Sequence record: PQ249395
DNA length: 64,000 bases
From: Escherichia phage Pu-Krd-SF1
Strand: one strand, 5' to 3'
Shown: one piece after another, positions 4,130 to 4,939 of the stretch
Layout of the letters: each line of letters begins with the position of its first letter
Position numbering within the stretch: the stretch's first letter is position 1
Notes under the pieces: generated by a model
What the model was told of the DNA's origin: nothing
Seen by the model: only the letters and a program-made list of their open reading frames with translations
Database searches by the model: none
Made by a program: the position numbers and the translations under genes

Positions 4130-4463
4130 AATTTTGGTTTTATGTGTAGGATTAATTTCATTTTCTGCGTTAGCAGATATATCATATTCTGAAGTTAGAG
4201 AGTATGTAAACCGTACTGCCGCGGATTATTGTGGGAAAAATAAAGCATGCCAAGCTGAATTTGCGCAGAAATTAATATATGCATATAAAGACGGAGAAAG
4301 AGATAAATCAAGCAGATACAAGAACGATACTTTATTAAAACGATATGCTAAAAAGTGGAATACCTTAGAATGTTCAGTTGCGGAGGAGAAAGATAAAGCC
4401 GCTTGTCATTCAATGGTTGACCGTTTAGTAGATTCTTATAATCGAGGATTGAGTACTAGATGA
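4122..4463 (+). CDS. Hypothetical secreted protein
   Basis: 113 aa, signal peptide MTKILVLCVGLISFSALA, four Cys; start overlaps upstream gene. Confidence 0.55.
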   Translation: MTKILVLCVGLISFSALADISYSEVREYVNRTAADYCGKNKACQAEFAQKLIYAYKDGERDKSSRYKNDTLLKRYAKKWNTLECSVAEEKDKAACHSMVDRLVDSYNRGLSTR

Positions 4464-4939
4464 TTGTAAAATATATCAAGGGCGATATTGTCGCCCTATT
4501 TCTTCAAGGTAATATTATTGCGCACGGGTGCAATTGTTTTCATACTATGGGTTCAGGTGTAGCGGGTCAATTAGCAAGGGCCTATCCTAAAATTTTAGAA
4601 ATAGATAAAACCACTACTGAATATGGTTCTCGTGATAAATTAGGCGATATGTCTATTGTTTTTAAACATAGTCCTGCGGGATTTGGTATATGCTATAATC
4701 TGTATACGCAATACGAACCGGGTCCTAATCTTGATTATGGTGCTTTAGTAAACTGCATGATAGAATTAAATCTACAGGCAGAAACCCTTTTGTTTAAACC
4801 AGTAATTTACATCCCACGCATAGGTTGTGGTATTGCTGGCGGTGATTGGGATAAGGTTTCTAAATTAATCGACATGTTTACTCCTGATATTGATTTAATA
4901 GTGGTGGATTATGAAAGTACATTACCCTCATCCGTTTGA
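4460..4939 (+). CDS. Macro-domain-like protein (putative ADP-ribose binding/hydrolase)
   Basis: Motifs KGDIV, NxxxxMGSGVAGQLARAYP and PRIGCGIAGGDWDKV resemble macro-domain signatures. Confidence 0.6.
   Translation: MIVKYIKGDIVALFLQGNIIAHGCNCFHTMGSGVAGQLARAYPKILEIDKTTTEYGSRDKLGDMSIVFKHSPAGFGICYNLYTQYEPGPNLDYGALVNCMIELNLQAETLLFKPVIYIPRIGCGIAGGDWDKVSKLIDMFTPDIDLIVVDYESTLPSSV

Follow-up and report, generated by a model that had tools for sequence, protein, structure and literature searches.

Gene tk.4 of the T-even phages, also called adfM, is already known: a macro (A1pp) domain annotation has been attached to it for about 20 years, and a role against the host defence system DarTG2 was assigned to it in 2025. 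The A1pp domain was reported in tk.4 orthologues in a 2006 comparative-genomics paper, the T4 RefSeq record lists tk.4 as 'phosphatase; contains A1pp phosphatase motif', and the GenBank labels on close homologues read 'phosphatase', 'Macro domain protein' or 'Poa1p-like family protein'. An earlier report had found that T4 lacking both adfA and adfN is still fully DarTG2-resistant, and an additional anti-DarTG2 factor was therefore to be expected. In HIDEN-SEQ, a transposon mutagenesis of T4 described in a November 2025 preprint, tk.4 was the single significant hit and was depleted on a DarTG2 host; a clean tk.4 knockout made T4 DarTG2-sensitive, and the gene was renamed adfM (10.1101/2025.11.20.689424). 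That T4 AdfM removes ADP-ribose from DNA is the authors' proposal, and the functional evidence on any Tk.4-type protein is genetic, comes from this one preprint and concerns only the T4 allele (10.1101/2025.11.20.689424). With AdfA and AdfN, AdfM makes up the layered set of anti-DarTG factors that T-even phages carry. A 2026 preprint using RIL-seq describes an Hfq-mediated contact between the tk.4 mRNA of phage T2 and the host sRNA ArcZ, and reports the Tk.4 protein as detected in infected cells and unchanged in an arcZ deletion; tk.4 is mislabelled there as a putative thymidine kinase.

Two further proteins are informative for comparison. The name AdfM has also been given to gp104 of phage PhiKZ (Cell Rep 2026, PMC13309987), which in vitro frees a TNTC oligonucleotide of the ADP-ribose added by DarT2 and whose activity is reduced by the substitution N23A (PMC13309987). 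The Streptomyces coelicolor protein SCO6735 hydrolyses the thymidine-ADP-ribose produced by DarT and rescues cells from this toxin. Structurally, its Gln85 has been published as the counterpart of the catalytic lysines of DarG and TARG1; the Q85A mutant is inactive and N27S nearly so, and the mechanism proposed is water-mediated, with the Gln positioning the distal ribose.

The tk.4 locus

The 64-kb stretch of phage DNA analysed here (the window) belongs to a T4-like Tequatrovirus. Over 3500-6000 its sequence matches Escherichia phage Pu-Krd-SF5 at 100% identity and numerous further T4-like phages at 98%, and the gene order, compared with the T4 reference, reads regB, vs.1, vs, tk.4, tk.3, tk.2, tk, rI.1, rI. 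Because the genome is T4-like and the reading frame at 4460-4939 occupies the slot between vs and tk.3, this frame is the positional orthologue of T4 tk.4. It is a real gene and well beyond a chance frame, as judged from its Pfam and PHROG matches, the 2780 phage records with a homologue and its AlphaFold2 model (below). The features referred to below are as follows.

4460..4939, + strand: tk.4/adfM coding sequence, ATG start, 159 aa, single-domain macrodomain
4479..4497, + strand: 8-bp hairpin plus downstream T-rich tail, in tk.4 codons 7-13 (terminator-like match and RNA fold)
4500..4920, + strand: allele cassette divergent from T4, approximate limits (nucleotide identity in bins)
4523..4567, + strand: codons 22-36 (HGCNCFHTMGSGVAG), predicted ADP-ribose-binding loop 1 (invariant columns, 95/96-sequence family alignments)
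4532-4534, + strand: AAT codon of N25, in loop 1
4697..4714, + strand: codons 80-85 (NLYTQY), strand end with invariant Gln84 (family and MAFFT/hhalign alignments)
4709-4711, + strand: CAA codon of Q84, aligned with the catalytic lysines DarG K80 and TARG1 K84
4814..4843, + strand: codons 119-128 (PRIGCGIAGG), Gly-rich loop 2, predicted to bind the diphosphate (family conservation; BT1257/SCO6735 motif)
4122-4463: vs, just upstream of tk.4
5315-5896: tk, separated from tk.4 by two small genes
51486-52121 and 52118-52720: ModB and ModA, in the same window as tk.4

The ATG of tk.4 shares bases with the vs stop codon (ATGA, 4460-4463). At its other end the gene overlaps the start of tk.3 (4911) by 29 nt (4911-4939) in a different frame, where T4 has a 4-nt ATGA, and residues 157-159, an extra C-terminal tail modelled with pLDDT <50, are encoded inside this overlap. 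The product can be aligned to T4 Tk.4 over its full length (57% identity over 154 residues, E=3e-69) and matches the PHROG 335 profile with E=8e-72. The tk-proximal frame of 159 aa on the + strand is exactly as the original prediction had it, and its product contains the three motifs quoted there, GDI (residues 8-10), GSGVAGQLARAYP (31-43) and PRIGCGIAGG (119-128); ModA and ModB are likewise encoded in the window. What does not stand is its presentation of the gene as a fresh inference, since the gene had already been annotated and assigned a function.

We presume that tk.4 is expressed early. A promoter scan of 2400-6200 gave 12 promoter-like sites, where shuffled sequence would yield 14.7; the sites are thus no commoner than expected, and the scan is uninformative on the timing of expression.

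Fold and active site of the encoded macrodomain

The product of the frame at 4460-4939 is a macrodomain. Pfam PF01661 (Macro) matches it at 32.2 bits (E=1.1e-7; gathering cut-off, 22 bits) over profile positions 2-117 of 118, and AlphaFold2, supplied with an alignment of 95 homologues from which the T4 sequence had been left out, returned a model with pLDDT 94.5 and pTM 0.89. The model has the three-layer alpha/beta/alpha macro fold, matched by Foldseek with probability 1.0 and TM values of 0.7-0.8 to TARG1, Poa1p, BT1257, DarG, ALC1 and coronavirus Mac1. The original prediction had called the product macrodomain-like and had set a profile match and a structural match as its tests; it passed both. 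On account of the Foldseek matches, the protein belongs to the ALC1-like/TARG1-like class of macrodomains. By sequence, the nearest solved proteins are BT1257 (E=2.8e-10), yeast Poa1p (1.6e-9) and SCO6735 (8.5e-8), with further matches to Mycobacterium tuberculosis DarG (E=5.9e-5) and human TARG1 (E=0.01). The protein is acidic, with a pI of 5.03.

In the family alignment of 95 homologues, which extends down to about 38% identity, fourteen positions are invariant: H22, G23, N25, C26, G33, A35, D49, N80, Y82, Q84, P119, G122, G124 and W130. The glutamine is thus present in 95/95 members, and in loop 2 the invariant P119, G122 and G124 are accompanied by A126, G127 and G128, each at least 90% conserved. 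The motifs MG(A/S)G and IGCGIAGG, the two ADP-ribose-loop signatures of the Macro domain, are conserved among these homologues.

Three comparisons bear on the identity of the catalytic centre. MAFFT aligned the NLYTQ of Tk.4 with NMIGQ of SCO6735 and with NFPTK of DarG. An hhalign comparison of the Tk.4 family with DarG-type sequences (probability 98.6%) placed T83-Q84 onto the T-K of FPTK. N25 fell in the column of Asn27 of SCO6735, which in DarG and PhiKZ AdfM is likewise a conserved Asn. The column of Q84 is that of the catalytic Lys in DarG (K80), TARG1 (K84) and PhiKZ gp104, and that of Gln85 in SCO6735. As judged from these alignments, the active site of Tk.4 appears to be of the Gln type, as in SCO6735, and the Lys chemistry of DarG, TARG1 and PhiKZ AdfM would not apply to it. 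The publications consulted here state neither the Gln84 centre nor the 57% allele identity described below. A Gln-type centre in T4-type AdfM is relevant both to the design of catalytic-dead controls and to any extrapolation from the biochemistry of PhiKZ AdfM.

Allele divergence at tk.4

The tk.4 gene of the window is a clean divergent allele cassette of about 420 nt. At the protein level Tk.4 is 57% identical to its T4 counterpart, as against 99% for vs.1, 94% for vs, 93% for tk.3, 99% for tk and 100% for rI. At the nucleotide level, the window and T4 agree at 97-100% as far as about 4500; identity then falls to 82% in the 4501-4560 bin and to 51-72% between about 4560 and 4920, and is 97% again by 4981. 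The divergence is unevenly spread along the protein: the first 14 residues are identical to T4 and residues 1-50 are 84% identical, as compared with 31% for residues 51-79, 47% for 101-115 and 21% for 132-155, these variable segments having been placed by secondary-structure positions only.

Both alleles are common in nature. The window-type cluster (P0001) comprises 304 sequences, and those of the T4 type comprise 122 (P0036) and 184 (P0016); an intermediate class has about 75-79% identity to the window protein. The window therefore carries a common natural allele whose product has diverged by 43% from the T4 protein that was tested but retains all of its active-site residues. One tentative reading, which we regard as possible but on balance improbable, is that window, T4 and intermediate cassettes recombine into near-identical T-even genomes at the tk.4 slot, with a frozen catalytic core and a variable surface. 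The variation could then reflect an arms race in which alleles are matched to DarT2 variants, partly by toxin binding, or to other adducts such as uracil-ADP-ribose on RNA. Independently of this, the Gln-type Tk.4 would have an origin separate from that of the Lys-type PhiKZ AdfM. If this is true, thymidine-ADP-ribose erasers have been captured by phages at least twice.

The cassette begins, at its conserved 5' edge, with a GC-rich hairpin of 8 bp (AGGGCGAUAUUGUCGCCCU, 4479-4497, + strand) that is followed by a U-rich tail and scores as a terminator-like match. Its RNA fold has a free energy of -14.3 kcal/mol (z=-2.84 versus shuffles), and the annotation of Yersinia phage fPS-90 places a 'terminator' feature under its homologue of tk.4. 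The hairpin might serve in attenuation or in RNA stability, or it might be a product of chance.

Departures from T4 were also seen elsewhere in the window. In vs, nucleotide identity to T4 dips to 83% at 4141-4200 with a 6-nt indel, and Vs has 113 aa versus 115 aa in T4. The sole frame between tk.3 and tk (5099-5305, the tk.2 slot) encodes a protein 54% identical to T4 Tk.2, and no counterpart of T4 tk.1 was detectable between tk.3 and tk (gap before 5315); here, then, is another patch of divergence or deletion within a region otherwise 97-100% identical. In the mobD region (7493-8397), MobD.1 and MobD.2a are 84% and 82% identical to T4 versus 91-100% for the surrounding genes.

Function of Tk.4 and comparison with known systems

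We consider it likely that Tk.4 counters DarT2 as a DNA glycohydrolase of the Gln type acting on thymidine-ADP-ribose, a reading whose enzymology we infer. The host toxin DarT2 would attach ADP-ribose to thymine N3 in single-stranded phage DNA, and Tk.4, a small stand-alone macrodomain enzyme, would most likely strip it off again, presumably by enzymatic de-ADP-ribosylation of the DNA. In the putative active site, Asn25 would hold Gln84, both of them invariant, so that the glutamine positions the distal ribose while water does the chemistry. Removal of the ADP-ribose would restore replication and allow the phage to escape abortive infection by DarTG2. Because function has been studied in the T4 allele, we can only infer that the 57%-identical window allele does the same job; that every active-site residue is kept between the two supports their equivalence. 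The original prediction had offered, as one option, a counter to host ADP-ribosylating defences, which agrees with the published genetics of the T4 orthologue, the tk.4 knockout being DarTG2-sensitive. Several observations stand against the glycohydrolase reading: the window Tk.4 lacks the catalytic Lys of DarG and TARG1; it lacks equivalents of Lys34 and Lys89 of SCO6735 and has a shorter loop after the Gln, features that may assist SCO6735 in handling DNA; its match to DarG models is weak; and its N-terminal half is as close to Poa1p as to anything else. The acidic pI was also considered as an argument against a DNA substrate and was dropped because PhiKZ gp104 is equally acidic (pI 5.05, compared with 5.03 here) and is active on DNA.

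The similarity to Poa1p raises the alternative that Tk.4 hydrolyses a small-molecule ADP-ribose derivative, as an ADP-ribose-1''-phosphate phosphatase, an O-acetyl-ADP-ribose deacetylase or a degrader of an immune signal, with DarTG2 protection being secondary or indirect. We judge this unlikely, and it would in any case be compatible with a glycohydrolase activity. The match to Poa1p over residues 3-79 (29.5 bits, E=1.6e-9) speaks for it, as does the alignment of the invariant H22 with Poa1p His23, a target of mutagenesis in the solved structures. The C-terminal part, in contrast, scores only 9.9 bits against Poa1p, and this half of the protein together with the Gln motif is nearer to SCO6735 and BT1257; at the position of Gln84, Poa1p presumably has a Ser. 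Its substrate, ADP-ribose-1''-phosphate, arises from tRNA splicing. We know of no counterpart of that source in T4 infection, and to our knowledge the T4 Pnk/Rnl1 RNA repair pathway yields no ADP-ribose-1''-phosphate. The word 'phosphatase' in the T4 RefSeq record, the 2006 comparative-genomics paper and PHROG 335 would favour a small-molecule substrate, but on tk.4 this label is a transferred domain name and does not come from an assay. A comparative-genomics survey has argued that phage macrodomains target mainly soluble ADP-ribose derivatives; against this, the sole phenotype known for T4 tk.4 is specific to a DNA-ADP-ribosylating toxin.

Another alternative is that Tk.4 neutralises DarT2 mainly without catalysis, by binding and inhibiting the toxin or by shielding or binding the modified DNA, an explanation to which we give slightly less weight still. 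In vitro, DarT is inhibited by each of the catalytically dead mutants SCO6735 Q85A, DarG K80A and TARG1 K84A, most strongly by that of SCO6735, and the fast divergence of the Tk.4 surface away from the binding loops (21-47% identity, versus 84% in residues 1-50) would fit co-evolution with a protein partner. All residues expected to position and hydrolyse the substrate are nevertheless invariant across the Tk.4 family, which argues for retained enzymatic activity, and Tk.4 has no equivalent of the C-terminal DarT-binding domain of DarG. Less probable than either of these is a role in the phage's own ADP-ribosylation, in which Tk.4 would serve as eraser or regulator for Alt, ModA and ModB and take ADP-ribose or ADP-ribose-linked RNA off RNA polymerase alpha, S1, EF-Tu and others. 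The Alt and Mod enzymes modify arginine. The closest characterised relatives of Tk.4 act on Asp/Glu esters, on thymine or uracil N3 or on ADP-ribose-1''-phosphate, and arginine cleavage is not known for the class, although arginine-specific macrodomains such as Legionella MavL are reported in another lineage. The presence of ModA and ModB in the same genome had led the original prediction to propose a partner or regulator of these enzymes. This proposal found no support, with record counts, host ranges and linkage class all against it: the Tk.4 family is found in 2780 phage records, including phages of Pseudomonas, Vibrio, Acinetobacter and Bacillus, whereas homologues of ModA/ModB occur in 926 records, almost all of them phages of enterobacteria. 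These figures and the differing host ranges indicate no obligate coupling of Tk.4 to ModA/ModB, and we rejected such coupling; within the window the genes lie about 47 kb apart. Moreover, T4 with insertions in tk.4 grew on plain K-12, and depletion was flagged only with DarTG2 (10.1101/2025.11.20.689424). Thymidine-ADP-ribose hydrolysis remains our preferred reading for Tk.4, and the known systems are compared with it below.

Yeast Poa1p (PDB 6LFQ-6LFU) is strongly similar in its N-terminal half (HSCNC...G.GIAYQLA..YPK), and its overall fold is matched by Foldseek with an E of about 2e-9. DarG (PDB 5M3I, 5M31) shares with the window Tk.4 its fold (Foldseek E of about 1e-8), its class and the conserved Asn. 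The target of both DarG and PhiKZ gp104 is DarT2-made thymidine-ADP-ribose, the same as that predicted for Tk.4, but both carry a catalytic Lys in FPTK where Tk.4 has Gln. DarG further differs in its C-terminal DarT-binding domain and its linked darT gene, the neighbours of tk.4 in the window being vs and tk.3. Membership in DarG was rejected for these reasons and for scores far under the cut-offs: NCBIfam NF048014 (DarG) gave 27.6 bits against a cut-off of 250, over profile positions 2-142 of 338, and the PADLOC DarG model gave 27.4 bits for the window Tk.4 and 36 bits for T4 Tk.4, compared with 132.9 bits for PhiKZ gp104. The latter is DarG-type, matching M. tuberculosis DarG with E=9e-25, and close homology between it and the window protein was rejected, BLASTP having given a match of 45 residues only (E=0.001). 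Because of the Gln versus Lys centre, the scores of the DarG model and the weak BLASTP match, the name AdfM covers two distantly related lineages that may have been recruited separately, the Gln-type T4 Tk.4 and the Lys-type PhiKZ gp104. A search of plasmids for Tk.4 homologues returned 44 distant matches (at most 43% identity), mostly labelled 'macro domain-containing protein' and with uninformative context.

The Gln-type ALC1-like proteins SCO6735 (PDB 5E3B) and Bacteroides BT1257 (2AFC/2FG1) are about 27-28% identical to the window Tk.4 and have in common with it HxCN, N-x3-Q and a PRIGCG(L/I)AGG loop, their own loop 2, PRIGCGLAGG, being near-identical to the PRIGCGIAGG of the window. The Gln in place of the catalytic Lys and the positioning Asn of this group are both found in Tk.4 (Q84, N25). 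The extended, positive and mobile loop that follows the Gln in SCO6735 is not, the window loop being five residues shorter, and the lysines proposed to position DNA in SCO6735 are likewise absent, with S32 (Ala in most homologues) in place of Lys34 and G88 in place of Lys89. Both proteins are basic (pI 9.7 for SCO6735 and 8.7 for BT1257), as compared with 5.0 for the window protein, and SCO6735 is cellular and DNA-damage-inducible, unlike a phage counter-defence. Finally, T4 Tk.4 (AdfM) shares with the window protein its slot (vs - tk.4 - tk.3 - tk), its single-domain architecture and its length class (155 aa versus 159 aa, the window protein being four residues longer at the C-terminus). It differs in loop 2, which reads PRIGAGIGKG in T4 and is the canonical PRIGCGIAGG in the window, and has H22, N25, Q84 and the Gly loops as the same invariant residues.
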